From assembly GCA_043823195.1 (NCBI GenBank), contig JBDRAZ010000055.1:3780-67779 (forward strand): DNA of 64,000 nt, given 5' to 3'. Below the pieces are notes generated by a model. That model saw only the letters and a program-made list of their open reading frames with translations. It was not told the origin of the DNA and did not search any database. The translations under genes and the position numbers were made by a program. This document shows positions 21,427 to 56,800 of the stretch, in pieces. The stretch is from an archaeon. Its GTDB lineage: Archaea > Nanobdellota > Nanobdellia > Woesearchaeales > JBDRAZ01. How positions within the stretch are numbered: the stretch's first letter is position 1; every line of letters begins with the position of its first letter.

Positions 21427-21443
21427 TACTTACATTGTAAGTA
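21427..21443. promoter_or_regulatory. single copy of the 17-bp palindrome TACTTACATTGTAAGTA filling the trpB-trpA intergenic spacer
   Basis: Exact match to the repeat unit of the 40.2-kb array. Half-sites TACTTACA / TGTAAGTA are perfectly inverted. It lies between the trpB stop (21444) and the trpA start (21415). Confidence 0.4.
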
Positions 21444-36837: not shown

Positions 36838-37152
36838 TCAGACATCCAGCTCGAAATCAAATAGCCTCATGAACTCATCAGCCAGTTCAGGGTCTTCCTC
36901 AACAACAGACAACATTTCTTTGCAGCAGCAGTGGGCACAGACATCTATGTCCCCGCCGCAGATGATGCATGTCATGTTACCTGGCTCCATTTGCGAGAAT
37001 ACATCTCCAGCTTTCTGCAACTGCGGCACGAGGCCCGGCACCTTCTCGGCTGCCCACTGGGTCCCCTGCTTTTCCAGGCAGTGCCTGCAGATTGGGTTTG
37101 TTATGGCCTCTTCGCAGACCATACAGACATCGTTGCACATTTGCTGTCGCAT
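36838..37152 (-). CDS. small cysteine-rich protein (14 Cys in 104 aa), putative zinc-ribbon/metal-binding
   Basis: Multiple CxxC pairs (CNDVCMVC, CRHC, CIIC, CAHCCC) and an acidic C-terminus. Confidence 0.35.
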   Translation of the reverse strand: MRQQMCNDVCMVCEEAITNPICRHCLEKQGTQWAAEKVPGLVPQLQKAGDVFSQMEPGNMTCIICGGDIDVCAHCCCKEMLSVVEEDPELADEFMRLFDFELDV

Positions 37153-37569
37153 TATTTTGCACCTCGGATATCACTGTTGCCGGGTTCCTGCGACGAGAGA
37201 AGATTGGGAAGCCCCAAACGCAAGTAAGGAGCACCAAGAAATCACAAGAACCCAGCAAGCAGTGAGTTCTAATGAGTATTACAATTATTGGCAGTCTTGG
37301 ATAAAAGCGAGTGGTTTAGGCTCACATCTCTTGATACGAGTTCCTGACATTCACCCTTGCACATCTCTGCCATGAACGTAAGGAAGTACGGCAGTTTTTT
37401 TATATTTAACTATATTTATTCGGAATATCATTCCATATTTTTGAAGCTGTTTGAAATGTTTATTCCACCCGTCGTCTATATTTCGGAAAACCCGCATGAT
37501 TTTCAACGGATCGGATAGCGAACGGGGCTTCCGAAAAGATTATAAAGCGCCGGACCTGAAATCTGCAAT

Positions 37570-40179
37570 ATGTACGATATTATTATCGGCAGGAACAAGT
37601 CCGACATGGACAAATTCGGTGACAGGGGCACCGTCCTTATCGGCAAGCACTATATCAAGATGGGGCGGGAAACCTCCCTTTCGAACAAGGTATTCCTGGA
37701 TGTGGCGCGGGCGCACGTTGTCTTTGTGTGCGGGAAGCGCGGCGGGGGAAAATGCCTGCATGGCGATACGCTGATTACCTTGGATGACGGTTCGCTGGTG
37801 CCAATCAGGGACATTAAGGAAAGCAACAGGCACGTTATGGCCCTTAACAAGAATCTTAAGATGCAGCCTTCTGAGAAGCTGGACTTTTACAGGAGACCGG
37901 TTGGAAGGCTCCTCAACATTAAGCTGAGAAGCGGAAAAGAGATAAGGCTTACGCCGGAACACCCGCTGCTTACTGTCAAGGGATGGATGCCTGCTGACCG
38001 GCTCAATATAGGCTCAAGAATTGCAACCCCGAGAAGTGTGCCGGCATTTGGTGATGAGCATATAAGCGAAGCCGAGACAAAAATCCTGGCTTACCTGCTG
38101 GCAGCGGGGAATGTTTCGAACAATTTCTTGTCCTTTGCAAGCCGCGATGAAAAAATTGTCGGCGATTTTAGGAACTCAGTCAGATTGTTTGATGAAAACC
38201 TGAAAATACACAAACACCCCCCGGGGGCTTGTTTTAGGGTTGCAGAAAAGCGGAAGAGGATAGTCATTAAACAACCGCCACGGGATAGGCTGGGCAGATT
38301 TTCATCGGCCACGGCCATAAGCGGCACATCATCCCTGGATGTGTGGCTTGACAAAATTGGGATCTGCAAAAAGCCCGCACGACAAAAACATATCCCAGAC
38401 ATTATCTTCAAGCTTCCGAGAAACAAAATCAGTCTTTTCCTTAACCGGCTGTTTTCCTGCGGCGCATCAATCTGCCGGGAAGGCGGGTTGTTCTGGAAAA
38501 TTTCCTACTGCTCCAGTTCAGAAAAAATGGCAAGAGAGGTGTGCCACCTCCTCCTGAGGTTTGGCGTAGTCGGCAGGCTAAGGCGCGGAGAGACAGCAGA
38601 CCCGCCCCGCTACGAGATTGAGATCGAGGGGGAATTTGTGCACACATTCCTTTCTGAGATTGGTTTGTTTGGAGATAAGGAGGAAAAGGCGGGGGGGGCG
38701 CTTGCCGATGCGCTGAAGATTGTGAGGACCCCTAACCCCGATAACATACCCGGGGGGATATGGGACCTGTACAGACCAGACGGCCGGGCAGGGGTTGGGC
38801 GTAAGCTGCACTACTCGACCCCCAAGACCTACAGCGAGAGCGGGCATTGCAGCCCATCCAGGCAGGAACTGCTGCAGATTGCCAGAGCTGATGAGAATGA
38901 CCTGTTGGCAAGGTTTGCCGCATCAGACATATTCTGGGACGAGGTCGTGCATGTTGAGTTGACTGAAGGGGATTTTACAGTGTACGATATAACTGTTCCT
39001 GAGAACCACAACTTCGTTGCCAATGACATAATTGTCCATAACTCCTATACGATGGGCGTCATTGCAGAGGGCCTTGCTGACCTGCCAAAGGATGTCTCAG
39101 ACAACCTCAGCTTCATCATGCTTGACACCATGGGAATATACTGGACCATGAAGTACGCCAATAAAAAAGAGGAGGATCTCCTCAAGGACTGGGGACTCAA
39201 ACCCAAGGGGCTTGACGTCAAAATCTATACCCCCGCCGGATATTTCAAGAGATACAAGGAAGAGGGGATACCCACCGACTTTCCGTTCTCAATCAGGCCA
39301 TCTGAACTGGATTCATCTGACTGGTGCATCACGTTTGGTGTTTCGGCCAACGAGCCCATGGGGGTCCTTATCGAAAGGACGGTCAATGAGCTGAAAAAGA
39401 AAAAAACAGGGTTCTCTGTTGAAGAAATCATTGAGGCCGTACAGGCGGACAGTGATGCGGAAAAAGAAGTCAGAGATGCGGTTGTTAACCGGTTCAGGAA
39501 CACCGAAGCATGGGGGGTGTTTTCAAAAGAGGGAACGCCGCTCAAAGAGTTGGTGCAGAAGGGCCAGGTAACGGTGCTTGATGTTTCGTGCTATGCAACA
39601 GTCCCCAATGGATGGGATGTTAAATGCATGGTTGTCGGGATAATCTCAAAGAAGCTCTTCATTGAAAGGATGGTCGCAAGAAAGGACGAGGAATACCGGA
39701 GCATTCACGCGGCCACCAATTACTTCGGAGATGATTCAGCCAGTAAACAGGAAATGCCCCTCGTGTGGCTTGTTCTGGATGAGGCGCATGAGTTCCTGCC
39801 AAATAAGGGAAAGACCACTGCAACCGACCCCCTGGTAACAATACTCAGGGAGGGAAGGCAGCCCGGACTGTCACTTATCCTTGCCACGCAGCAACCCGGA
39901 AAGATACATACCGACGTCATGACACAGTCTGACACAGTAATCAGCCACAGGATAACTGCAAAAATCGACACTGATGCGCTCGGGATGCTGATGCAGAGCT
40001 ACATGAGGGAGGGCCTTGACAGGCAGCTTGACAACCTTCCAAGGGTCAAGGGCGCAGCCATTGTCTTCGACGACACCAATGAAAAGATGTATCCGATAAG
40101 GATAAGGCCCAGATTCACTTGGCACGGCGGGGAGTCGCCCGTTGCTGTTAAGGAGAAGAGCGGGCGGTTTATGCTTTAG
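37570..40179 (+). CDS. HerA/FtsK-like P-loop ATPase (DUF87-type) interrupted by an intein. The extein is about 439 aa.
   Basis: Extein Walker A 'VVFVCGKRGGGK|SYTMGV' is split by the intein. Walker B and the HerA-type helicase motif read 'LVWLVLDEAHEFLPNKGKTT…ILREGRQPGLSLILATQQPGKI'. Confidence 0.8.
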   Translation: MYDIIIGRNKSDMDKFGDRGTVLIGKHYIKMGRETSLSNKVFLDVARAHVVFVCGKRGGGKCLHGDTLITLDDGSLVPIRDIKESNRHVMALNKNLKMQPSEKLDFYRRPVGRLLNIKLRSGKEIRLTPEHPLLTVKGWMPADRLNIGSRIATPRSVPAFGDEHISEAETKILAYLLAAGNVSNNFLSFASRDEKIVGDFRNSVRLFDENLKIHKHPPGACFRVAEKRKRIVIKQPPRDRLGRFSSATAISGTSSLDVWLDKIGICKKPARQKHIPDIIFKLPRNKISLFLNRLFSCGASICREGGLFWKISYCSSSEKMAREVCHLLLRFGVVGRLRRGETADPPRYEIEIEGEFVHTFLSEIGLFGDKEEKAGGALADALKIVRTPNPDNIPGGIWDLYRPDGRAGVGRKLHYSTPKTYSESGHCSPSRQELLQIARADENDLLARFAASDIFWDEVVHVELTEGDFTVYDITVPENHNFVANDIIVHNSYTMGVIAEGLADLPKDVSDNLSFIMLDTMGIYWTMKYANKKEEDLLKDWGLKPKGLDVKIYTPAGYFKRYKEEGIPTDFPFSIRPSELDSSDWCITFGVSANEPMGVLIERTVNELKKKKTGFSVEEIIEAVQADSDAEKEVRDAVVNRFRNTEAWGVFSKEGTPLKELVQKGQVTVLDVSCYATVPNGWDVKCMVVGIISKKLFIERMVARKDEEYRSIHAATNYFGDDSASKQEMPLVWLVLDEAHEFLPNKGKTTATDPLVTILREGRQPGLSLILATQQPGKIHTDVMTQSDTVISHRITAKIDTDALGMLMQSYMREGLDRQLDNLPRVKGAAIVFDDTNEKMYPIRIRPRFTWHGGESPVAVKEKSGRFML
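37753..39042 (+). mobile_element. intein (430 aa) with LAGLIDADG homing-endonuclease domain, inserted in the P-loop
   Basis: Block A 'CLHGDTLITLDDG'. Block B 'RLTPEHPLLTV' (TxxH). LAGLIDADG-like 'ILAYLLAAGNVSN' and 'ISLFLNRLFSCGASI'. Blocks F/G 'DFTVYDITVPENHNFVANDIIVHN' are followed by the +1 Ser. Confidence 0.8.
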
Positions 40180-40220
40180 TTCTGCCTACCATATCGGATA
40201 GGGTTTTTATTTTTGAGACA

Positions 40221-40405
40221 TACCTACATTGTAAGTATTAATAAATTCCGAGTACCTACATTGTAAGTATGAACGGACAATAATACCTACAATGTAAGTA
40301 CAAAGGCCACCATATCCGCAAGATATTTATAGAAGTTCCTACATTGTAAGTAAAAACTCATTCTGTTCAGAAAAATTTATATATAGATACTTACATTGTA
40401 AGTAT
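40221..40405. promoter_or_regulatory. array of five 17-18-bp palindromic sites TAC(C/T)TACA(T/A)TGTAAGTA, putative TrmB-type operator cluster
   Basis: Copies start at 40221, 40253, 40284, 40337 and 40388 (spacings 32, 31, 53 and 51 bp) in an AT-rich intergenic region. The motif fits TACT-N8-(A/G)AGTA, like the haloarchaeal TrmB site TACT-N7-8-GAGTA. Confidence 0.55.
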
Positions 40406-40430
40406 TGCGCTGTGTTGGGGAACACACTGA

Positions 40431-40901
40431 CTAGGGGGTCAAAGGGGCCCCAAAATAGAGTACAGAGAGAAAAGAGGTGCAGGCGCTTCATCTAGTTCTC
40501 GGGCTGCTTCGCCTGAGTTTAATGCTGAACCCATTCCCTGCTCGATATTCTATGACAGGGGCGTTAGCGTCCTGGAGGCGATTTCTGAATATCTCAAGGA
40601 TGCCAAATCACTGAACTACCACCAGATAGCCGTTCTTCTGAACAGGGATGATCGGACCATATGGACCTGCTACTCAAGGGCCAAGAAGAAACGGGCCGGA
40701 ACCAGAACCAGGATATCCCAAGTCAGTGTCCCCAGCACCATATTGCGCGACAGGAACGTAAGCGTCCTGGAAGCGATTTCTGAATACCTCAAAGACTCGC
40801 TTGGGCTGTGCTATCATGAGATAGCTGTGCTTCTGAACAGGGATGATCGGACCATATGGACCTGCTACTCAAGGGCCAAGAAAAAGAGGGATGCCCAATG
40901 A
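40431..40901 (+). pseudogene. start-less 156-codon open frame encoding two copies of a sigma-70-region-4-like HTH module. Possible pseudogene or non-canonically initiated small regulator.
   Basis: The frame is open from the stop at 40428-40430 to the TGA at 40899-40901 with no ATG, GTG or TTG. It contains a ~135-bp imperfect direct repeat (40561-40690 and 40757-40895). Each copy encodes 'VSVLEAISEYLKD…YH(Q/E)IAVLLNRDDRTIWTCYSRAKKK'. The stop overlaps the ATG of the downstream protease gene (ATGA). Confidence 0.4.
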
Positions 40902-43900: not shown

Positions 43901-44863
43901 ATTCAATACTGCAGGGAGCAAAACGTAAGCGTGATCAGCCTCTCAATCGGGTCAGGCGCCTATGATACCTGCTATTGTGACGACAACCCCGTCGCCAACC
44001 AGAGCAATGAGGCTGTACTGGATGGAATCTTTGTTGTCGCTGCCACAGGAAACTCCTACTCAACCAGGGCTAAGAGCCCCTCCTGCGCAAGCCGCGTTGC
44101 CTCGGTATCATCAACAGACAAGCGGGATAATGTCTCGCTGTTTGCAGACATCAATAACATAACAAAACTGCTTGCGCCCGGCGAGCAGATATACACGAAA
44201 ACGGTTGGCGGGAATAACACTACTGTTTCAGGCACTTCCATGTCTGCTGCGCATGTAGCGGGTGCAGCTGCGCTGATTTTGCAGAACAGCAGCCTTTCTC
44301 CTACAGAACTGAGCTACAGGCTGAGGTCCACTGGGCGGGTTGTGGAGTTCATTTTGCAGAATTACTCGAGAATCGATTTGCTGAATGCCATACTCAATAA
44401 CGTGACAAATACACCGAAGGAAATGGATGCTGTGCAGTGCTCCGAGAGCCTGTATAGTCCGCTGGCGCTGCTGACCGGGCCCGCGGTCACAATCCAGTGC
44501 TCAAGCTACGGCTGCCTCAGGATACAGAACAGCGGCGGCACGGATATTGCGGTCATCACTGAATACGGCCACATGAGCACCATAGGAGCCCTAACGCAGG
44601 GCTGCACAAGCAGCCCAAACGGCAATGACTGGCAGATTCAGGATTCAAGCAGCAATGTCAAGGCGTGGCTTGATGACAGCACCGGGGCTTTCTGCATTGA
44701 TGGCTCGCTAAGCACCGAAACCACAGTCAGCCCGAGCGGAAGCAATGATTTCATTGTGAGAAACCCCTCAAACGCGAATGTTGCCATGCTTGACGGCGGG
44801 ACAGGAAACCTTGTGCTCCTTGGGAATTACAGTCAGAACGCGGGACCAATAACAATAACATGA
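40898..44863 (+). CDS. membrane-anchored tandem subtilisin-like serine protease (two I9-propeptide + peptidase-S8 units), heavily N-glycosylation-sequon-rich
   Basis: Start 'MTAYGRKVRELQRR…'. About 95 cytoplasmic aa then the TM helix 'LNIALVVMLILSAGLWIPVL'. Catalytic triad of unit 1: 'VCVIDSGVD…HGHGTSVA…GTSMSAPHVAGAAALLLQ' (about 42640-43330). Unit 2: 'ICVIDTGVD…HGHGTSVA…GTSMSAAHVAGAAALILQ' (about 43680-44350). Each is preceded by an I9-like propeptide. Many NxS/T sequons. Confidence 0.85.
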   Translation: MTAYGRKVRELQRRIRACEEKKRNVIDCCNDLSRQCEHNRISYSRYRILLKDQLGGKSISDTLVHYDRAITRYRVAVSQYKSDTPDRLNIALVVMLILSAGLWIPVLNNLRASPTGFVAGETTESYTDAINMNLSGSYSWIPPESGELRSVMVSGRITGNGTVGIYLVSRNSRQLIYRTPEREGIAAITGNVVDNQTEDNRTGNSSGADPANESEITPEITLNLKYKEGTPFDADNDGAETLEGVIDFYADSAFSWDANLSNVCSVWRISSGGTESTICHGAWRCCNFAELLPEEGHSWDEMHLYYGLLGAGTENNVSSRVLYVDYSLDPENPYSVIAYSNWSTLPARFYEPADEWLDIEDECLETCLLGLDEYNYTIAVETENATVFLSNITYSVVEKNKKPQLVRAIPQVTAGANFTINASDYFTDDDTLVYAVEGCDIPHTITGGIIRFKPDATGISKCRIRASDDQDSVLSNVFKVTVVRVVPLVVDQAINITLATQETVRVIVRLIDNTSGSNLSLIRKIDEFEVLYLNSSALNELQNNLYALEVMIDQPLSLLLNDSIGIIGAESAWNISLNGSGQRVCVIDSGVDNGVVPVAGGYDFVNNDADPYDDHGHGTSVAYVIHRIAPESGIIAVKVIDENGAGYESDVLAGIEYCREQNVSVISFSIGSGGYPGTCNDNIVASYANSAAAAGIFVSAATGNDGTALLKSPACASLVTAVAASTKNDTLANFSNVNALVRIVAPGDSITTILPGGDAIVRSGTSMSAPHVAGAAALLLQNDDLEPEELEEKIAISGKVIEHDGRNYSRIDIGRALNITVNVTVNETNITFAANATVDPRVEEFVNRVGFVRAIVRVSDPNISLNYSIIVRVNQYIALILDNESLSVLRHLPGVEEIVMDQPVLLLLNESVPLIRADMNLSVNGSGQRICVIDTGVDYSVVPNYEYGFDFVNNDTDPFDEHGHGTSVANVIYNVAPGAGIVAARVVNGSGTGYESDVLLGIQYCREQNVSVISLSIGSGAYDTCYCDDNPVANQSNEAVLDGIFVVAATGNSYSTRAKSPSCASRVASVSSTDKRDNVSLFADINNITKLLAPGEQIYTKTVGGNNTTVSGTSMSAAHVAGAAALILQNSSLSPTELSYRLRSTGRVVEFILQNYSRIDLLNAILNNVTNTPKEMDAVQCSESLYSPLALLTGPAVTIQCSSYGCLRIQNSGGTDIAVITEYGHMSTIGALTQGCTSSPNGNDWQIQDSSSNVKAWLDDSTGAFCIDGSLSTETTVSPSGSNDFIVRNPSNANVAMLDGGTGNLVLLGNYSQNAGPITIT

Positions 44864-44876
44864 GAGAGGTGAAGAA

Positions 44877-47800
44877 ATGAACGTGCTAGGACATGAGAAG
44901 ATGAAGCGAATAGGTGCCCTGGCAGTCATCTTCATGCTTCACCTAGCGATAGCTCTGCCCTTTGTTGAGGCAGCAGACCCGGGCCATTCTGCGGCTGCGG
45001 TTGGCTCAGGAACATTCGAGTCCGGAGATTACGGGTTCCCGGGAAGCCTTAACATTACAGCAAGCCTCGGCGTCGGCTCAAGGTGGCCGGGCGGGACAGG
45101 AAACATAAATGCCAGCGGAAACATCTCGATAGGCGGACTGTTCTTTTCGCGGGGAGCCGGCAACAACTACTTTGCCGGGAACCTCGGCATAGGCACAGCT
45201 GCAGCCGCGTCCAAGCTTACCGTGATTGGCAACGGCAATATTACCGGGGGGCTGAATGTTACCGGAAGCATAAAGTCCATCTCAGGGATATTCTACGGAG
45301 ACGGATCAGGGCTGACAAACCTGCCGGCGGGATCTGTGCAGGATGTTTGGGTAAATGAATCAGGGGATACAATGACGGGGAACCTTATCATCAATGCCAA
45401 CCTGACCGTTGATTCGGGCGTGCTGTTTGTGGATAACTATGGCAACTATGTGGGAATCGGCACGACCAGGCCGGATGAGCTGTTTGAGCTGTCCAGCTCA
45501 AGTTTTAGCAACACCGACATGAAACTGACTGCAACTGCAAACGGCGCTGTGGGCGGCTCAAAAGTGGGCAATGTCATGTTTGAGGGGCAGGATACATCTG
45601 TTGGCACAGCTGTTTTGTCCCAGATCAGCGGCATATACGTCGAGGGCGCCTCAGGCGGGGACGGCTTTGCAATAGACGGCTCTTCCGGGGACGGCGGCGG
45701 CATTGCGTTCCTGACAAACAAGTACACCGGCTCATGGGACGGGCTGTCTGAAGCGATGAGGATCGACATGAACGGATATGTTGGAATAGGGACCGGCAGG
45801 CCGACACAGCTGCTGGATGTCCGCGGAAACATCTACACAACCGGCAACATTGCAGTGAACGGGGACCACATCACATCAGACGGAAACCTAGAGATCGAGG
45901 CAACCGGGTATGTAAGGATTGGCGATGACGGATCGCCGGGAAGCGCCAACGGGGATGATGACCTGTATGTGCGGGGAAGCATTGAGGCGGACGGAATCTT
46001 CTACGGAGACGGATCAGGGCTGACAAACCTGCCATCGGGTGCGGTGGCAGATGTGTGGGTGAATGAGTCAGGGGATACGATGACGGGGAACCTGGTATTC
46101 AGTTCGGCCAATCTGGACATGGGAGGGGGGATAATTAACCTGTCAGGAGGATACATATATGATTCAACCGGTGCGGCAACCGTGAACGATGACCTGAAGG
46201 TTAACGGCGGCGACATAACGGGTGCAAACTCAATAACAATGGATCTCGGAGAGGCAGACACCGATGCAGTTGTAATAACAACCGACAATGTTGGCGATTA
46301 TGATGATCCCGACCTGGTCATCAACTCAGGGGGGGAAGGGAACATCCGGCTTGGTGCAGCAGATGCGGATACCGGATTCCAGATTTATACTGACAGCGCC
46401 TCATTTCCGCATGCCCTGAAGGTAAGGGCTGAACTTAATCCGGATGCTGCAGACTATGAGATGTTTGTCGTAATGAGCTCGGGTGCTGCTGAAAGGTTTT
46501 CTGTCATTCATGGCGTAACAGGATACGGCAGCCAGTTCTATGACAGCCTGGCTGTCGGCGCAGCCGGGGACAACAGCCCAACCCTGACGCACATTGATTT
46601 TGGAACGGACAGCAGCGGAGACCTGTGGGTTGGCGATGATGCTGAGATCAATGGTGAAATGCACATTGACGGAACCGGAACAAGCACCATGGACGGAGAC
46701 TTGCAGGTTGCAGATGACAGCTGGATCGGGATCGGATCAGGTTCCGAGAGGGTTGTGTTTGATTCCGCAGGAGATATTGAGGTCCTGGGCGCAAACGTCG
46801 GGATCGGGACAACAGTGGCAAGTGCATATCTTCACATAGAGGACCTGTTATCATCAGGTGACTTGCTGGAGTTGACAACAGATAATAAGGATATTGACAT
46901 AAGAATAGGTGAGAACGATGACGGGGGATACGGATATTACTGGCGCTATGTGGGTACCCAGGGCGGGAATGATAATGAGCTGGAGCTGTGGACTGAAGGG
47001 CAGGCCGGCGCAGATGTCCAGGTGTATGAGATCGAACAGGACGGCCAGGTCAATTTCCTGCAGAATGTTGGCCTCGGAACAGACTCTCCTGCATACCGGC
47101 TGGATGTGGTTGATTCAATAAGGGCAGGAACCGGGTCGCCGGGAACGGCGGACATGAGCACAGGGGCCAATGCCGACCTATTTGTAACAGATGACCTGGA
47201 GGTTGACGGGATAATCTATGGGGACGGCTCTGGGCTGACTAACCTGCCGGCAGGAGCTGTTGCAGACATATGGATCAACGAGTCAGGAGATACGACAGGT
47301 GCGCTCACAAAGGACCTGAACATCGATGCAGGAACACTGGTTGTCGACTATGATGCGAATGCCGTCGGGATTGGAACAAGTGTTGCTACAGGTAAATTAA
47401 CAATTACGGGCCCGACCGCCAACACGGGTGTTGACTCCAACAGCGAGCTGGTTATTTATGGCGCACACCCGCAGATAAAATTAAGGGACACGGATGGTGT
47501 CGGCGAGAGTTGGTGGATCCATGCGAATGATGCCGGGCTTTATTTCCTGAAAAACGATGATGAAAGCTCAACGAGCACATGGGACAGCACCAGGCCATTT
47601 TTCATTGGGGAGTCAGGCAACGTCGGCATTGGGACTGCAGCCCCAAGTGCACTTCTGGATGTGCAGGGCGATGCTTATCTTACCGGAGACATCCTGATGA
47701 CTGACGGGAATTACATTGGAATATCGGGGAATGAGAGGATTGTGTTTGATGATGCCGGGGATATTGAGATCCTTGGGGCGAACGTCGGGATCGGGACGAC

Positions 47801-50800
47801 AGCTGCTGAAACCACATTGCATGTTGAGGGGAACATGACCATTGGAGGAACCGGACTGTTGTTTGAGGATTCAACCTCGGGAGGGGATGCATCGCTGACA
47901 AGAGTAATCCGCTTTAACAACAATGACGACCTGAGATATGATGACACCAATAACATCTACACATTTACAGGAGACGCAAAAACGTACCTGGTTATGGACG
48001 ACCAAAGCGTGGGAATCGCAAGGGCACCATCATATGGCCTGGATGTCATCAATTCCACTAGGATAGGCGACGGCACTCCGGGAACAGCCGACATGAAAGG
48101 GAAATCGGCCGCGGACCTATATGTAACTGATGACATTGAGTTCGACGGAGTCATCTATGGCGACGGCTCGGGGCTCACAAACCTGCCGGCTGGAGCGGTG
48201 CAGGACATATGGATCAACGAGTCTGGAGATACGACCGGCGCGCTGGTAAAGGACCTGAACATTGATGCGAATACGCTTTTGGTAGACTATGATGCGAACA
48301 GCGTCGGGATTGGGACTTCTGCTGCAAGCCAGGGACGGCTGCATGTATACCGCTCAGATACAATCGGCGGAGTAGGGGGCACACTTACAAATGCCGCACT
48401 TGCAATCTCAAACGGCGCTAATGACGGATTTTATATTGATGAGAACGAATTCCACCAAAGCGGCGACAATTTTAACCTCTATCTGGACACGGATGCGAAG
48501 AATTTCATTTTTTATGATAATGCCGGCCAGATTATGACTATCCAGGATGGGGGAAACGTGGGGATTGGAACTGCGACAGCCACGCAGAAGCTGGATGTGC
48601 AGGGGAACGCGTACATCACAGGAGACATCCTGATGACTGACGGGAATTACATTGGAATATCAGGGAATGAGAGGATTGTGTTTGATACTGCAGGGGATAT
48701 TGAGATCCTGGGGGCGAGTGTCGGAATAGGTACGACTGTGGCAACGGCCCCATTGGAGATTGCTGCAAGCGCTGATGAACAGCTCCTTATAGAGGGCGGC
48801 TGGGATGACACATTAACAAGCAACGCAAGAATGAACTTCAATGATGAGAACTTCGGAGTTGGCGCAGGCCAGTATGGAGGCGGAAGCTCTGAGGACGCCA
48901 TGGTTCTCTGGTCATACAAGGGCGCGGGCCGGGGCATCCTCTTTGCATCCACGGCTGCCGGGGACACCACAACATTCCAGTCAATGACCCATAACATGTT
49001 TATAGATGGCAATACCGGGGCGGTCGGCATCGCAAAAACAAGCCCGTCTTATACGCTCGATGTATCTAACTCGACAAGGATCGGCACGGGCACGCCAGGA
49101 ACAGTTGACATGAAAGGCGGACCGGATGCCGACCTATATGTAACAAATGACATCGAATTTGACGGCGTGATCTACGGGGACGGATCAGGCCTGGTAAATT
49201 TGCCGGCCGGAGCTGTGCAGGACATATGGATCAATGAGTCAGGAGATACGACGGGTGCGCTTACAAAGGACCTGAACATCGATGCGGATACATTCGTGAT
49301 AAGCTACGATGATAATCGCGTGGGGATTGGGACGGCTGCACCAACGCAGCTATTGGATGTGGAGGGCAACCTGGAGGTCGACGGGACGCTGTACTTTGAC
49401 GCAGCCAATGCGGACGGGACCATAGACATGGACGGGTACAGGATCGAGGATCTTGGAGACCCAGATTCTGGAGACGATGCAATGGACAGGGATTATGCTG
49501 ATTCCAGGTACGTTAACACCAATGGGGATACCATGACAGGCACCCTGACAACAAGGCAGGTCACTGTTCAGGACGGATATGTCATAAGGCATCAGGAGCA
49601 GGGAGGAAATGCCATCATGTTCGACTGCGACGGGACTGACTGCGATTCGAGGATAACAATCCATGACGGACAGGGCAACTTCAACATCAAGACCGGGGTT
49701 GATGACGGCGAACTTTTCATCGCGGGCGGGAGCCACGGCGCAGCCAAGTACACGCAATATGCTTCCGGCGCAGACGGGGCCCACATTTTCCAGGTGGATG
49801 ACCAGGGAACTGGCGGCGCAGCTGTAAGCTATGACGGTGGGCTGCGGTTTGATGATTCAGGACTATTTATCACGACAAGCCCCGGGGACCATTTTGCCAC
49901 CGGCGGAAACCAGATCGCTGACCTGTCCGGACACCTGTATACGGAGGCATACCTCTACCATGAGGGGGATACCAATACTTACGTGGGATTCCCGTCTAAT
50001 GATGAGATCAGGCTAAGAACCTCGGGGACAGACAGGATAACAATCGTATCCGGCGGAAATGTCGGTATCGGGACAGCAACCCCGTCACAGCTGCTGGATG
50101 TGCGCGGAAACATCTACACAACAGGCGATATCGCGGTGAATGGGGATGACATAACCTCAGACAGCAACCTGGACATCTCGGCGACGGGATACGTGAGGAT
50201 CGGGGACGACACAGGAACGCCCAACTATGCAAGCGGAGACGACGACCTGTATGTGTATGGCGATATCGAGGCTGACGGAGTATTCTACGGGGACGGCTCA
50301 GGGCTGATTAACCTGCCGGCGGGGGCGGTGCAGGACATATGGATCAATGAGTCAGGAGATACCACGGGTGCGCTGATCAAGGACCTGAACATCGATGCGA
50401 ACACTTTTGTGATAAGCTATGATGATGATCTGGTTGGCATTGGGACAGCGACTCCTGCCACAAAGCTTGATGTTGAAGGGGACATACAGTTGTCCGGACA
50501 ACTATTGGGTGATGTGCAAAGAGGCGGAGAGACCACGTATAGCTCTGTCGGCTACTGGACATTTGATGGGGATTATGACGACTATTCGGGTTACGGGCAG
50601 ACGGGCACAGCGAGAAATAACGCCGCCCGCACTTCAACAAATGCGCTTTTTGGACAATCGCTAAGCCTGGACGGAACCGATGATTCGATTGAGATCGCAG
50701 ATTCTGGATCAAGCCCCCTTGACGTAACAAATGCCTTCACTTTCGAGGCATGGGTACGTCCTGATCTGAACACTGATGAGATGATCCTGAATAAGGAGAC

Positions 50801-53800
50801 AAGTTATGAGTGGGTGATTCAGGGAAGCGGTACTGTCCAGTGGGCACTTTATACCAGCGGCACATGGGAGTGGCATGACACGGGGGTATCTGTCCCGACA
50901 CTAGAATGGACACACCTTGCGCTTACGTATGACGGGACGAATGTCAGGGTTTACAAGAACGGGGAACTCAAGAGCACTATCGCGGACCCGGACGGCGGCG
51001 CAATTGGCACCAATGACAACAACCTGTGCATCGGCACACGGGGCGGGGACGGCTGTGCCGGAACCCAGGACTACGACGGGCTTATTGACGAAGTGCGCAT
51101 CTACAACCGCGTCCTGACATCAGAGGAAATACGGGCCCACCACACCCAGAGTTACTGGGCAGAAGAGGGGAGCAACGTATATCTTACAAGTTCAGGAAAC
51201 GTCGGCATCGGGACTGCTACAGCAACACAGAAGCTGGATGTGCGGGGCAATGCCTATATTACGGGCGACGTCCTCATGACCGATGATAATTACATCGGAA
51301 TCTCTGGTGCTGAGAGATTAGTGTTTGATACGGCCGGGGACCTGGAGATACTGGGGGCAAACCTGGGAATCGGCACTTCAACTACCAATGCAAACCTGGA
51401 TATCTACGGCGGCGGGAGCGCCACAACACAGATCTTCATCCAGAACCCGGGCAATAACGGGGCAGGGAAGGGCGCAATAGATGTAAACAATGGGGACATA
51501 ATCGGCCTGAACAAGATTTTTTTTGACGACCTCGGAGAAGGCCTAGTGTGGGCAACTGCAAACACTGCTGCAACATCAAAGACACAGATATATTCAACAG
51601 ATGCAACACCCTCAAACATTTACCTTGACACAAATCTGAATTCAAACGCCGGGCACGTCATAATCCCAAGCGGGAATGTGGGAATCGGCACAGTAACGCC
51701 TGCGCAGAAGCTCGATGTGCGCGGAAACATATACACAACAGGCGACATCGCAGTAAACGGGGATGACATCACGTCGGACGGAAACCTGCTCATTGCCGCA
51801 ACAGGGTATGTAAGGGTCGGCGATACAGGAACGCCCACCTATGCAAGCGGAGACGACGACCTGTATGTGTATGGTGACATCGAGGCTGACGGAGTATTCT
51901 ACGGGGACGGCTCAGGGCTTGTAAATTTACCGGCGGGAGCGGTGGATGACATATGGATCAATGAGTCAGGAGATACGACAGGAGCCCTAACTAAGGACCT
52001 GAACATCGATGCGGATACATTCGTGATAAGCTATGATGATAATCTGGTAGGAATCGGGACGGCAACACCCAGTCAGAAGCTGGATGTTGTTGGGAATGTA
52101 GAAATCAATGGAAAATTTGGTGCCGCAACCGGAAGTAGTGATGGTCAAACGCGAGGTTTCTGGGTTTGGAACTTAGGGGATTCGAACCACGTCATTTATT
52201 CTGCAGCTTCAACAGGGACGTCTCCCGCGGGAGCAGGTGCAGCCGACGGGCTATGGGATGCAGGCCACAGAATGAGATTCAGAACTGCAACCACCCAGGG
52301 ATTCCTTTTTGAAAACAACGGAGAAACAGCATTGGTTGACATTGATTCTGATAACGGCAACCTGAGATCCATTGGCACTGCGTATTTCAGCGGTTCCGGA
52401 AATAACTATTTTGCGGGCAACATTGGCATCGGGACTGCGACACCCAGCCAGCTCCTTGATGTGCGCGGAAACATATACACAACAGGCGACATCGCGGTGA
52501 ACGGGGACGACATAACATCAGACAGCAACCTCGACATCTCGGCTACGGGATATGTGAGGATTGGTGATGATACGGGAACGCCCAACTATGCAAATGCTGA
52601 TGATGACCTGTATGTATACGGGGACATTGAGGCGGACGGAGTATTCTACGGGGACGGATCAGGGCTTGTAAATTTGCCGGCGGGGGCCGTGGACGACATC
52701 TGGATCAATGAGTCAGGAGATACGACCGGGGCACTAACTAAGGACCTGAACATCGATGCGGACACGCTTGTGATAAGCTATGATGATAATCTGGTAGGAA
52801 TCGGGACGGCTAGCCCCAGTGATGCATTACATGTACATAAAGACTCTGGTATCAGAATAAGCGACCCAAACAATGTTTACAGGGCTAATTTGTTGTTTGG
52901 GGCTGACAGTGCGTGGAACAGCGGCATCAGGGTATACGACAACGGAGATGCAGAGATGAGGATCTGGCATGAGAATGTGGACGGCCAGATTATCCTAGCA
53001 ACCGGCTATGCCGGAGATATGGCTACTACTATTCCGGGTGATGGCCTGTTCATACATGAGAACAAATTAGGAATAGGATACGGTGCCACAACAATCCCAG
53101 ACGGCGCACGTCTGGCTGTGAACGGCAACACAGGCATAGGAACAGCATCACCAACACAGCTGCTGGATGTCCGCGGAAACATATATGCTTCAGGAAATGT
53201 TGATGTGGACGGGACGCTGTACTTCGATGCTGCTAATGCAGACGGACAATTGGACATGGACGGGCAGACCATACAGATGAGAGGGGGAGTTATTGAGGAC
53301 GCAACTGATGAGGTAGATATAAATGATAACCTTGCGGTGGCCGGGCAGATTACGGCAAATTACTTTAAAGCCGGGCAGGGCAACTCTGCAACCATCGGGA
53401 GCGTCGGGTGGTACAGGATTGCCTCAAACGGCGGGAACAGGGCCAATGCCGAGTTTACATTGAGGGACTATATCAGCGGCGGCGGGCACTCCATGCTGAC
53501 ATTCAAGGTGGGCGTATCCTATGACTGGGAACCCGGCATGAGCTTTACCCTCCTTAACCACAATTACTATAGCACAGCAACCTTTACGAAAGTAAGGGTA
53601 TGGGAGAGCAGCTATACCTATGACCCCATGTATGTTGAGGTTTATGTCGCAAGGACAGGGAGCATGGATTACTCAATATATGATAACCTGCAAAGCAGCG
53701 GATGGAGCCCCATTGACTGGACAGCGGGTGCCACACCCACAGGAACTGGAGCATATACCGCGAGGGAGTTTGAGGTAAATAACCTATTTACCGTCGGGGA

Positions 53801-56800
53801 TTACGACGACAGGTTTACTGTTGCACGGGGGGGCAATGTCGGCATAGGAAGCACAAGCCCCAGCCAGAAACTGCATGTGCAGGGAAACATCTATGCTTCA
53901 GGAAACGTTGATGTAGACGGGACGCTGTACTTCGACGCAGGAAATGCTGACGGGACGCTGGACATGGACAACCAGGTGATAACAAACATTGGCGATGCTG
54001 GGACTGATTTCACGTCGGGCGGGCACCTGACCCTGGCCGGAGACCTGGCGGTTAACGGCGATGACATCACGTCAGACAGCAACCTCGACATCTCGGCGAC
54101 GGGATACGTGAGGATTGGTGATGATACGGGAACGCCGACCTATGCAAACGGGGATGACGACCTGTATGTGTATGGCGATATCGAGGCTGACGGAGTCTTC
54201 TACGGGGACGGCTCAGGGCTTGTAAATTTGCCGGCGGGAGCGGTGGACGACATATGGATCAATGAGTCAGGAGATACGACCGGAGCTTTAACCAAGGACC
54301 TGAACATTGATGCAGATACATTCGTGATCAGCTATGATGATAATCGCGTGGGGATTGGGACGGCTGCACCAGGGGCTTCACTGGATGTATACGGGACAGC
54401 AACAGACCACTACTTTAGGCTTGGTTCAGGGGCAGCAGGAGCAAACAGCTGGGATTTTGTCACCTCCGGGACAGGCAGCACTTTCGTGCCGGCGGGCTCA
54501 TTCTGGCTATCAAAGGCCGGAACAGGGAACGTACTTACTGTAGACACATCAGGCAACGTTGGCATCGGGACAAATACACCTACACAGCTTCTTGATGTCG
54601 AAGGAGATATGACACTGGAAGGAGACATACTCATGACCGATGGTGATTACATAGGAATCTCTGGCAATGAGAGGATCGTGTTTGATGGTGCCGGAGACCT
54701 GGAGATACTGGGTGCGAGTGTCGGTATAGGGACGACCGTAGCATCCGATACCCTGGACGTGCGCGGGGATGCAGTCATAGGTGACGGAACAACATACGGG
54801 GACACCAGGTTTGCAATAGCCGGGACGAACGGCAACAATGACGGCACTTTTTTAACTGTCAAGAGGGACGGAACAACAAACCCCGTATACAGCATGCTGC
54901 CATGGGATAGCCAGATTTACCTCAGTGCGGGCATTTATTACAGCAATGGCGCATGGGTACATAATTCTGATGATACAAACAATCTGCTGTTTGTCCTGGA
55001 CCCGGGTGCAGGCACCGCATGGTATGCATCGAATAACGGTGCTGGCTCATGGAATGTGGCTAGCAATGAGGCTCTCTGGGATGCTGGAGCCAACTGGAAA
55101 AACCTTGTGCAGTCAACACAGTCCGGAGTTTCCTATTTTACAGGAGGAAATGTGGGGATTGGGACAGCAACCCCGTCACAGCTGCTGGATGTCCGCGGAA
55201 ACATCTACACAACAGGCGACATCGCAGTAAACGGGGATGACATCACGTCGGACGGAAACCTGCTCATTGCCGCAACAGGTTATGTAAGGATCGGCGATAC
55301 AGGAACGCCCAACTATGCAAATGCTGATGATGACCTGTATGTGTATGGCGATATCGAGGCTGACGGAATCTTCTACGGGGACGGCTCAGGGCTGGTAAAT
55401 TTGCCGGCCGGGGCTGTGCAGGACATATGGATCAATGAGTCAGGAGATACGACAGGTGCGCTGACCAAGGACCTGAACATCGATGCAGATACCCTGGTCG
55501 TGGATTATGATGCGAACAGTGTGGGGATCGGGACAGCGACGCCGGGATACAAACTGGAAGTGGCCGGGACTGCAAAATCAGGAGCTGCAGCAGTCAGCGC
55601 AGCAAATCAGCCAGCCCTGAGAATTGCTGCGGCAAATACCGCCGCAACCGGCAGAATAACTGCGATCCAGCAGCTTACCACCGAAGGGGATACAAGAATT
55701 TTTGCAGATTATGACCCATATGTGGAATACGGCATGTATGCAAGGAACAGCGATGATTCAATACATTTCACTGCCGGGACGTCTACAAACGGGCTTGAAT
55801 CCTGGACAGAATATAATACCGCGGGGGCTGCGAGGACAGCCTACTCAAAAATGAAGGTCAGCCTGGGTAATGGCCAGGTCACAATCGGCGGCAACGTCGG
55901 CATCGGGACTGCCACAGCAACACAGAAGCTGGACGTCCGGGGAAACATATATGCGTCAGGAAACGTTGACGTGGACGGGACGCTGTACTTCGATGCAGCA
56001 AATGCGGACGGAACACTGGACATGGACGGGCAGACCATACAGATGAGGGGAGGAGTTATCGAGGATGCAACTGATGAGGTGGACATTAATGACGATGTGG
56101 CGATTACAGGAAATGTCCTCATGGCTGACGATAAGTACATTGGAATATCGGGTGCAGAGAGGATTGTGTTTGATACGGCAGGGGATATTGAAGTGCAGGG
56201 GGCAAATCTGGGCATCGGCACTGCAACCGCAAGCCAGGCCCTATATGTTGTCGGACAGCACATCTACACAACAGGTACGCTTGTTGATGACGGAAACGGC
56301 AAGAACCTCATACCGAACTGGCAGATGGAGTCTGATACGTACTGGGCGGATCCACCCGAACAGACGGCGATTGCTGACTTTGAGGGCGTCACCCATTATG
56401 CGCATCAGGCAACAGAATCAGGGACCGGCTGCTACCAATGGGCGCAGACGGGAAGCATACCTGCAGACGCAAGCAAGACATACAAGTTCACGGTGTGGAT
56501 TAAGTCAACCGGGACAGACATGAACAACTACTTTGGGTTTTATATTTTTGATTCTGCCGGAACAAGAATAACAGGATCATGGGACAACCCATACTTCAAG
56601 ACCAGCGAGAGCGATCCCAACTCATGGATTAAATGGACCGCGTACCTGGGACCGAGCTATGCCGGCGGTGCAACAGGATGCGATACAAGCAAGACAAATG
56701 CAGATGACTGGTGCATGTCGTCATCCACAGCGTACATACGGATGAGATTCGGTTCCTGCTACGCAGACGGGTCAGGAACATCATATTCGTATTTCATATA

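Follow-up and report, generated by a model that had tools for sequence, protein, structure and literature searches.

A class 1 P-loop intein with a degenerate LAGLIDADG domain in a HerA-like ATPase of an uncultured DPANN-type archaeon

The open frame at 37570-40179 (+ strand) of the window, by which we mean the whole 64,000-nucleotide stretch of DNA that was analyzed, very probably encodes the precursor of a HerA-like ATPase whose P-loop is interrupted by a class 1 intein; as judged from the sequence, this intein is most likely splicing-competent and is now an immobile passenger at the 'degeneration' stage. The frame is uninterrupted over 2610 nt and specifies 869 aa. The exact protein is deposited at NCBI as MFH1849612.1 and named only "LAGLIDADG family homing endonuclease". 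The annotation of this entry and of many relatives, which bear the same name or "hypothetical protein", is corrected here to precursors of a highly conserved Woesearchaeota/Nanoarchaeota HerA-like ATPase.

The precursor is divided into an N-extein, the intein and a C-extein, all on the + strand. The N-extein (aa 1-61, 37570..37752) starts with MYDIxIGR, which also opens the homologues, and its tail, VVFVCGKRGGGK, ends in the first part of Walker A, GKRGGGK (G55-K61, 37732-37752). It is followed by the 430-aa intein (aa 62-491, 37753..39042), which was recognized by Pfam and whose ends were set by intein-free homologues. The C-extein (aa 492-869 and the stop codon, 39043..40179) opens with SYTMGV, and its first residue, the +1 Ser (TCC, 39043-39045), makes Walker A whole as GK↓S, where the arrow marks the insertion point. 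The original prediction had described an intein of 430 aa with blocks A, B and F/G that splits the GK(S/T) of the P-loop; this was borne out at every coordinate (nt 37753-39042), the insertion lying between Lys and Ser of Walker A. Block A, CLHGDTLITL (37753..37782), begins with Cys1, the first nucleophile, and its codon was again read as TGC (37753-37755). Block B, GKEIRLTPEHPLLT (37933..37974), contains LTPEH with T67 and H70, and blocks F and G form the segment DFTVYDITVPENHNFVAN DIIVHN (38971..39042) with D412, H429 and N430; all of these residues, like Cys1, are invariant in the family (118/118 copies). The C-terminal His-Asn-Ser, which had been marked for a re-check, reads CAT AAC TCC at 39037-39045, with His-Asn at 39037-39042. 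Hence, the intein carries the full class 1 set of Cys1, block B TxxH, block F Asp, block G His-Asn and +1 Ser.

Profile searches gave the same assignment. The precursor matched the Pfam families Intein_splicing (E=1.6e-24, 86.9 bits against a cut-off of 35.8) and LAGLIDADG_3 (E=3.8e-10), and the excised intein segment matched PF14890 (E=2.6e-25) and PF14528 (E=6.1e-11). TIGR01445 (intein_Nterm) and TIGR01443 (intein_Cterm) both exceeded their cut-offs, the latter with 36.2 bits against 15.6. In addition, the segment of blocks F and G aligned with the C-terminal end of 4o1r, the Npu DnaB mini-intein.

Removal of the intein gives GKRGGGK↓SYTMGV, with Walker A split between Lys61 and Ser, and the spliced junction reads ...GGGK-SYTMGVIAEGLADLPK; the intein-free target DNA was reconstructed as 48 bp, with TGCGGGAAGCGCGGCGGGGGAAAA before and TCCTATACGATGGGCGTCATTGCA after the insertion point. 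We compared this site among homologues. The motif GKRG[GS]GKSYTMG was unbroken in 120/120 of the best intein-free homologues, which are about 440 aa long, 65-72% identical and derived from Woesearchaeota/Nanoarchaeota MAGs, whereas 118/120 of the intein-bearing homologues listed showed GK↓C...HN↓S with inteins of 413-472 aa. This presence/absence polymorphism at one exact site, together with the presence of all blocks, identifies the insertion as an intein. Weak, sub-threshold Pfam matches to Hint and Vint were also obtained and the sequence comes from a MAG, so that one might consider a Hint/BIL-type domain that does not splice, or a fusion that arose as an artefact when the metagenome was assembled. 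The probability of either is negligible, since none of the C-terminal His-Asn, the +1 Ser and block F is missing, the identical architecture occurs at the same site in at least 118 independent database clusters from many samples, and excision restores the exact host motif.

The state of the intein was examined by counting deviations at conserved columns of the family. In the splicing domain, only 2 of 53 conserved columns deviate in the studied copy, both by conservative changes, and the identity to the family (0.61, compared with 0.59 for family pairs) is normal. In the extein, 2 of the 173 columns that are at least 90% conserved deviate, both being I/L swaps, while the median of the other members is 3. 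The retention of 171/173 conserved extein positions indicates that the host protein is under normal purifying selection, which demands splicing. One might suppose that the intein no longer splices and that the ATPase gene is effectively a pseudogene, as the decaying endonuclease domain described below suggests that selection does not act on the intein as a mobile element. We consider this very unlikely because every invariant splicing residue is intact, the splicing domain is conserved at the level typical of the family, and neither the conserved extein nor the unbroken 2610-nt frame is expected of a pseudogene.

The homing-endonuclease domain (about intein aa 101-384, 38053..38904) was found to be degenerate by its column deviations from the family. 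The two predicted LAGLIDADG-like helices are indeed present in one chain, at intein aa 110-121 and 227-240 (PF14528, E=6e-11), but other residues have taken the place of both catalytic acids, and none of the 118 family copies has a more decayed domain. In motif 1 (block C), KILAYLLAAGNV (38080..38115), Ala118 stands in place of the catalytic Glu, which 116/118 copies have; in motif 2 (block E), SLFLNRLFSCGASI (38431..38472), Gly237-Ala238 stand in place of the catalytic Asp-Gly (D in 114/118 and G in 116/118 copies). Neither motif therefore contains the catalytic Asp/Glu of an active LAGLIDADG endonuclease. At the endonuclease columns that are at least 90% conserved, 14 of 64 deviate in this copy, the highest number in the family, where the median is 1, and the identity of the domain to the family is 0.44, compared with 0.52 for family pairs. 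The domain is still full length (about 280 aa). Some LAGLIDADG enzymes still bind or nick DNA with only one active site, and a residue in the domain that compensates for both lost acids is conceivable. Nevertheless, we infer a loss of nuclease activity, and the intein is probably splicing-competent but immobile. The label "LAGLIDADG intein" should better read "intein with a degenerate LAGLIDADG domain".

A fully active and currently mobile intein, in which both splicing and homing are functional, would be consistent with the two helices, with the full-size endonuclease domain and with a family that looks mobile as a whole on sequence comparison. Among 116 carriers, a sample selected by similarity, the pairwise identities of exteins and inteins were essentially uncorrelated (Spearman 0.04), and the intein was more alike than the extein in 14% of pairs. 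We regard this explanation as highly improbable for the studied copy: it has A118 and G237-A238 where at least 114/118 copies have E and D, it shows the most deviations at conserved endonuclease columns, and the PhoVMA intein, which lacks the same residues, is experimentally inactive as a nuclease (PMC8966425). The closest relative of the intein is only about 58% identical, which is too distant for the decay to be dated.

Mini-inteins occur at the same GK↓S site among relatives. The full-length endonuclease domain kept here despite them could reflect recent inactivation or a continuing need for the domain, for example in the folding of the splicing domain. The latter possibility belongs to an explanation in which the intein is retained or domesticated: either the splicing domain depends on the dead endonuclease, which is kept for that reason (HINT-HEN mutualism), or conditional splicing, for example redox-gated via Cys1, switches ATP binding. 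It has been argued that selection retains inteins in P-loops (PMC4760082), DnaB inteins have been presented as stress sensors (PMC6195587), and the studied N-extein has a nearly invariant Cys54 located 7 residues before Cys1. However, Cys54 is equally conserved in intein-free homologues and is thus not intein-specific, the substitution of many otherwise conserved endonuclease positions looks like relaxed selection rather than new constraint, and most close homologues have no intein, which suggests that the host has no need of it. Retention of this kind is distinctly improbable, and we favor a splicing-competent passenger whose endonuclease has decayed.

For such a passenger, the following course can be proposed from established intein chemistry. 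With the intein in place, the P-loop could not form and the precursor would be unable to bind ATP. After translation, the intein would excise itself by an N-S acyl shift at Cys1 and transesterification to the +1 Ser; cyclization of Asn430, helped by His429 and residues of blocks B and F, would then be followed by an O-N shift. The exteins would thereby be joined through a native peptide bond, yielding an ATPase of 439 aa whose P-loop is intact. The intein would first have spread by homing, with the nested LAGLIDADG endonuclease cutting intein-free alleles at the approximately 20-40 bp encoding the P-loop, and the endonuclease of the studied copy would since have lost both catalytic acids and gathered many other substitutions. 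The reading frame of the intein would be preserved solely because the host ATPase would be lost with any disruption. We infer splicing itself, as well as the cellular role of the ATPase, from the sequence.

The host had been predicted to be HerA/FtsK-like. After splicing in silico, the protein matched DUF87, the 'Helicase HerA central domain' (PF01935, E=2.8e-13, 50.9 bits against a cut-off of 23.2), which confirmed that the spliced extein is a P-loop ATPase; PF01935 gave no match on the unspliced precursor because the intein splits the domain. Walker B, WLVLDEAH (39766..39789), aligns with vVLEEAHtYL of HerA 8wiv, and D307, E308, A309 and H310 are invariant in the homologue alignment. The motif REGRQPGLSLILATQQP (39847..39897), a HerA/FtsK-type motif with arginine finger and sensor, is likewise invariant in that alignment and aligns with keGRKyGigmmlvsQRP of HerA 8wiv and 8xau, so that both elements named as HerA-type in the original prediction correspond to segments of solved HerA proteins. 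GKRGGGKS (post-splicing), WLVLDEAH and REGRQPG...ATQQP follow one another in the correct order and are invariant in the alignment. The AF2 model of the spliced extein (pLDDT 76.2, pTM 0.78) was compared by Foldseek, and the top matches were HerA structures 4d2i and 9x1l (probability 1.00, E ~3e-11, TM ~0.5), followed by DndH-C, SIR2-HerA and VirB4. The spliced protein is a DUF87 ATPase of the HerA/FtsK superfamily, and its predicted fold is nearest to HerA.

The gene neighborhood was inspected for a functional lead. In the window, a pair of NifS/NifU-like genes and a Cys-rich ORF of 104 aa lie upstream of the gene, and an S8 protease is encoded downstream; none of these recurs in the best 80 of at least 591 GTDB species loci. 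The neighbors conserved in those 80 loci are a divergent PpiC-like gene (50/80), a co-directional 99-aa ORF (41/80; no Pfam match of its protein) and, as named by sequence, TrpRS and DnaG lookalikes; the PpiC-like gene and the 99-aa ORF are both missing from the window. Since the neighbors in the window do not recur and the conserved ones are missing from it, the neighborhood gives no functional lead.

Two more specific roles for the host were not supported. One is orthologous HerA, the NurA-partnered helicase of double-strand break repair: the NCBIfam HerA equivalogs score the spliced protein at only about 29-43 bits, far under their cut-offs of 800-970 (NF040819, 35.8 bits against 970; NF040937, 29.1 bits against 800). 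An adjacent nurA, or mre11/rad50, was not found and no NurA-like neighbor was recognized in the window or the best 80 loci, in which the 99-aa protein was scanned with profiles and the other neighbors were named by sequence. The other role is the MADS defence component mad8, whose PADLOC profile PDLC04140 was matched over its full length with E=2.6e-20; this profile has no curated cut-off, and HerA models score alike. Other mad genes were not co-located in the window or the best 80 loci, where the neighbors appear to be housekeeping genes. The mad8 assignment was rejected on this apparent context and on the distribution of the family, which is near-universal in Woesearchaeota-type MAGs and 65-72% conserved and in this does not resemble a defence island gene.

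Sequences flanking the frame were read by eye. A candidate archaeal promoter, consisting of the purine-rich BRE-like element CGAAAAGA and then the TATA-like element TTATAAAG (37532..37547, +), lies approximately 23-30 nt 5' of the ATG, a position that would mean a leaderless or very-short-leader mRNA. A T-run, TTTTTATTTTT (40204..40214, +), located 25 nt past the stop codon, is a possible archaeal oligo-T terminator. The window was also scanned against Rfam; there was no match, and thus no RNA that would account for this region in part or as a whole. Antisense ORFs within the gene (60-140 aa) were regarded as incidental to the long sense frame.

In sequence databases, the allele is not rare, and at least 120 clusters have an intein at the identical site. 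The original prediction had suggested that a P-loop intein was undescribed in this host family; this holds for the literature on inteins with HerA, DUF87, FtsK, DPANN or Woesearchaeota, in which we did not find the allele described, but not for the databases, where it is common and entries are already labelled as intein or homing endonuclease. Absence of the intein is commoner among close homologues. A search with the C-extein only brought the mini-intein alleles to light. That search missed even the identical protein, as its word-based selection of candidates is biased against long intein-bearing entries, and its count is therefore of no use for allele frequency. Other insertion points were also found in the same ATPase family, namely a second P-loop site (GKRG↓SGKS) and one in Walker B (DE↓(A→C)H). 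The stages seen among relatives comprise the empty allele, an intein with an active-looking endonuclease, the probably nuclease-dead intein studied here, the mini-intein and a double-intein allele. A broader reading is that this conserved DPANN HerA-like ATPase is an undescribed intein hotspot, with at least 3 sites in nucleotide-binding motifs and all stages of the homing cycle, and that the dead endonuclease is kept for splicing-domain dependence or for a splicing-gated ATPase and not by mere decay; we consider this reading, taken as a whole, rather unlikely. The several sites and stages could nonetheless be used to study the population dynamics of inteins in archaea that are uncultivated, and the mini-inteins of the family may interest protein engineers. 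With the studied copy, the P-loop ATPases known to be invaded at GK↓S/T gain one more host family, and the copy would be a clean natural example of endonuclease decay with splicing function preserved. The intein is genuine, but as a selfish element it is of an ordinary and well-known kind, and the current understanding of inteins is unchanged.

We compared the host and the intein with known systems. HerA from Sulfolobus solfataricus (4d2i) and the Thermococcus HerA-NurA complex (9x1l) have Walker A, Walker B, REGRxxG...QxP and DUF87 in common with the spliced protein, although the identity is only 14-18%; the spliced protein has 439 aa with only about 45 aa ahead of the P-loop, whereas HerA has about 500-600 aa. 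The closest named sequence relatives of the intein are DnaB inteins (Ssp and Npu mini-inteins 1mi8 and 4o1r; NF005852/PRK07773). The intein part of PRK07773, a Mycobacterium-type DnaB intein, matched the studied intein alone over its full length with 223 bits, and the Npu and Ssp DnaB mini-inteins were the best PDB sequence matches, with a nearly identical ...HNFVANxIIVHN. These inteins are likewise class 1, with Cys1, His-Asn and +1 Ser. However, the closest DnaB relatives, which are approximately 34-36% identical to the studied intein, occupy another host and site, motif H4 (DLRESG↓C...HN↓SIEQDAD), while other DnaB inteins sit in the DnaB P-loop (ARPSMGK↓C...HN↓T). An endonuclease domain is kept in the studied intein but is missing from the solved DnaB inteins, which are mini-inteins.

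The Walker A GK(S/T) of P-loop NTPases, including MCM, RFC-S, DnaB and others, has been described as a recurrent intein hotspot (Novikova et al. 2015, PMC4760082), and P-loop inteins of other ATPases share the type of insertion point, as in the representatives GDPGAGK↓C..HN↓SQLL and GEPGTAK↓C..HN↓SW. Unlike the hosts treated in the main text of that paper, which does not mention HerA and FtsK and names VirB4 once (5 inteins in bacteria), the studied host is a DPANN DUF87/HerA-like ATPase. The endonuclease region showed a weak match to the V-ATPase inteins 7qss/7qsu. In the PhoVMA intein, from the V-ATPase A subunit of Pyrococcus horikoshii, the catalytic acids of blocks C and E are missing. 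Experiments showed that this intein splices but is inactive as a nuclease and that grafting the acids back rescues the activity; it was placed at the degeneration stage of homing (PMC8966425). Both PhoVMA and the studied intein are full-size, lie in ATPases and miss the catalytic acids of blocks C and E; they differ in host and site, and PhoVMA has a truncated block E, whereas the studied intein carries substitutions only.

The ATPase-intein precursor was encoded by a single uninterrupted frame of 869 aa at 37570-40179 on the plus strand, and the intein occupied aa 62-491 (430 aa; nt 37753-39042, plus strand), with the junction codons read at the nucleotide level. The N-extein ended in GTG TGC GGG AAG CGC GGC GGG GGA AAA (VCGKRGGGK), the next codon was TGC (Cys) at 37753, and the closing His-Asn-Ser was encoded by CAT AAC TCC at 39037-39045. 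The codons at both ends agreed with the extent given in the original prediction, and the His-Asn-Ser junction, which had been flagged for re-checking, was correct. The required terminal residues (Cys1, His-Asn and +1 Ser) were all present. Profile searches with the precursor supported the intein assignment far beyond chance: Pfam Intein_splicing matched with E=1.6e-24 and 86.9 bits (cut-off of 35.8), LAGLIDADG_3 matched with E=3.8e-10, and the NCBIfam models of the intein N- and C-termini both scored above their own cut-offs.

The host domain was invisible to Pfam on the 869-aa precursor. When the protein was spliced in silico, the resulting 439 aa matched DUF87 ("Helicase HerA, central domain") with 50.9 bits (cut-off of 23.2), and the extein therefore aligned to the HerA/DUF87 profile. 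When the spliced extein was modelled with AlphaFold (39-sequence alignment, pLDDT of 76, pTM of 0.78), its best structural matches were the HerA hexameric translocases from S. solfataricus (4d2i) and T. kodakarensis (HerA-NurA, 9x1l) (E ~3e-11, TM ~0.5), with a sequence identity of 14-18% to HerA structures. The DndH-C protein, the SIR2-HerA and DUF4297-HerA defence ATPases, VirB4 and TrwB/Cagβ were the next matches. Upon alignment to solved HerA proteins, WLVLDEAH fell on Walker B and REGRQPGLSLILATQQP on the keGRKyG…sQRP motif, as had been proposed for both elements. By homology, we infer that the ATPase is an ATP-driven hexameric nucleic-acid translocase. An assignment as an orthologue of canonical HerA was rejected on three grounds: the equivalog scores were ~30-40 bits (cut-offs of 800-970), the identity to HerA structures was low, and the gene had no identified NurA neighbour.

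Neither the window nor 80 related loci had an identified NurA beside the ATPase; the neighbours in both were judged from sequence and not by a NurA profile. In the best 80 related loci, the neighbours resembled housekeeping genes (PpiC-like, TrpRS, DnaG). These neighbours, together with the 65-72% conservation of the ATPase across many MAGs, speak for a core role in the cell and against one in defence, even though PADLOC matched the ATPase to mad8/HerA. These loci, which carry intein-free ATPases, contained a divergent PpiC-type isomerase-like membrane protein beside the ATPase (50/80), a co-directional ORF of ~99 aa without a Pfam match (41/80), TrpRS (37/80) and DnaG primase (30/80), all of which were missing in the window. 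Upstream of and divergent from the window's ATPase gene lay a Cys-rich 104-aa ORF (36838-37152, minus strand) with several CxxC pairs and a weak zf-C4pol match (E=0.002).

Searching with the spliced extein gave thousands of relatives, and the best 120, which were examined, were ~440 aa long, 65-72% identical and derived from MAGs of Woesearchaeota, Nanoarchaeota or the "DPANN group". The motif GKRG[GSA]GKSY[TS][ML]G was continuous in all 120 of these intein-free homologues; excision at K61|S therefore rebuilds exactly the Walker A of the family, in line with the claim that the intein splits the GK(S/T) of the P-loop. With the whole precursor as query, the identical protein (P0121 among the database relatives, NCBI MFH1849612.1) ranked first, ahead of more than 119 other clusters of ~860-880 aa with 53-61% identity. 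In 118 of the 120 proteins listed, the intein located by a simple pattern parse was 413-472 aa long and lay where the window's intein does, GK|C…(I/V)(V/I)HN|SY; the other two had the same junctions with a variant residue downstream. Since intein-free and intein-bearing homologues meet at one point, the site is, by sequence comparison, a classic case of presence/absence polymorphism, with one codon boundary as the insertion point.

Other inteins were also found in this ATPase family. Mini-inteins of ~160-180 aa occupied the window's site (GK|C..HN|S) in the relatives P0400 (603 aa) and P0413 (619 aa). P0405 and P0406 (585 aa) carried a mini-intein of ~146 aa at another P-loop site, which lies upstream of the first by three residues (GKRG|C…SHN|SGKS). 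Four alleles of ~1300-1320 aa (P0153, P0211, P0241 and P0250) combined the P-loop intein with a Walker B intein of ~430-440 aa (VLDE|C…HN|CHE), in which the host Ala was replaced by the +1 Cys. The pairwise identities of exteins and inteins were essentially uncorrelated (Spearman 0.04) among 116 carriers that were picked by similarity to the query and covered a narrow identity range, which weakly hints that the intein moves horizontally between alleles.

We aligned 118 family inteins, all from the same P-loop site. The splicing residues Cys1, T67 and H70 (block B), D412 (block F) and H429-N430 were invariant and were kept in the window's copy. The family consensus of the two LAGLIDADG helices was LLAYLIAEGH and LFLNRLFSCDGS; of the 118 copies, 116 kept the catalytic Glu and 114 the catalytic Asp, whereas the window's copy read ILAYLLAAGN and LFLNRLFSCGAS and lacked both catalytic acids as well as the Gly after the second. 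We counted departures at columns with at least 90% conservation among the 118 copies. The endonuclease domain of the window's copy had 14 deviations over 64 columns, the highest of all 118 (family median of 1), and the splicing domain had two conservative deviations over 53 columns (family median of 1). Its identity to the family was normal in the splicing domain (0.61 versus 0.59 for random family pairs) and lowered in the endonuclease domain (0.44 versus 0.52). The extein deviated at 2/173 strongly conserved columns, both I/L exchanges, on par with any family member. This pattern is the expected signature of a host protein under selection, for which splicing would therefore be required, and of an endonuclease under relaxed selection; the LAGLIDADG nuclease of this copy is probably dead. 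The original prediction was thus supported overall with one correction: an intein with two LAGLIDADG helices was present, but its endonuclease was degenerate, with both catalytic acids replaced.

Following established intein chemistry, the precursor would be unable to form a P-loop while the intein is in place. An N-S acyl shift by Cys1 would yield a thioester to be attacked by the +1 Ser, Asn430 would cyclise with the aid of His429, D412 and T67/H70, and an O-N shift would give the native GK-S bond. The frame would stay open because a nonsense or frameshift mutation would remove the C-extein too. For mobility, the LAGLIDADG nuclease would have had to cut the empty site, which we reconstructed and whose conservation was examined in intein-free alleles.

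Just past the ATPase stop codon, the intergenic region contained five copies of the near-palindromic 17-mer TACYTACAWTGTAAGTA (40219-40409, spaced 32/31/52/52 bp), with a further perfect copy at 21427-21443 and 0 matches expected in shuffled sequence. The copies resemble an array of operators to which a dimeric DNA-binding protein would bind, located upstream of the genes for the S8 protease and the giant protein. A ~160-bp direct duplication followed (40536-40695 and 40731-40890, period of 195 bp, 80-88% identity); its second copy overlapped the annotated start (40856) of a 1335-aa subtilase-domain ORF, and the true start or leader of this gene may therefore be ambiguous. Directly after this S8 protease ORF, a giant ORF (44859-63998, plus strand, >6,380 codons) ran past the window end; its first 1,714 aa had only weak Pfam matches (Chlorovirus glycoprotein repeat, DUF4397), and the ORF probably encodes a giant surface protein.

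In the literature on DUF87, HerA, FtsK, DPANN and Woesearchaeota, we found no published description of an intein in this ATPase family, and the main text of the Novikova survey mentions VirB4 and not HerA (PMC4760082). The suggestion that such a P-loop intein was undescribed held for the literature searched but not for databases, where the allele is abundant and already machine-labelled "intein/homing endonuclease". All 869 aa of MFH1849612.1 were deposited as "MAG: LAGLIDADG family homing endonuclease [archaeon]" and many relatives as 'hypothetical protein'; automatic annotation missed the identity of the host ATPase because DUF87, split by the intein, falls below detection on the precursor.

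The type, site class and chemistry of the intein are textbook, and the P-loop is a documented hotspot of intein insertion (PMC4760082). Relatives were sought in a large protein library with one representative per 50%-identity cluster. The best matches (42-49% identity) were inteins that shared this P-loop point and had hosts from the same DUF87 family or a related one with longer proteins (GARGSGK|C…HN|SYVLG). The next tier (~34-36%) comprised inteins of DnaB, inserted in its helicase motif H4 (DLRESG|C…HN|SIEQDAD) or at an adjoining position (DLRE|C…HN|SGAIEQDAD), followed by inteins in the P-loop of DnaB (ARPSMGK|C…HN|T) and in various other ATPases, all GK|C…HN|S/T. The NCBIfam model of intein-containing mycobacterial-type DnaB scored 223 bits across the entire intein, and the nearest solved structures by sequence were the Npu and Ssp DnaB mini-inteins. 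Judged by these matches, the element therefore belongs to a large clade of DnaB-like, P-loop-associated inteins, although these DnaB inteins sit in the H4 or P-loop of DnaB and the present one in the P-loop of a DUF87 ATPase. The PhoVMA intein, which lacks the block C/E acids, was nuclease-inactive by experiment, and grafted acids restored cleavage (PMC8966425). With these acids missing in both, PhoVMA is an experimentally characterised precedent for the window's intein.
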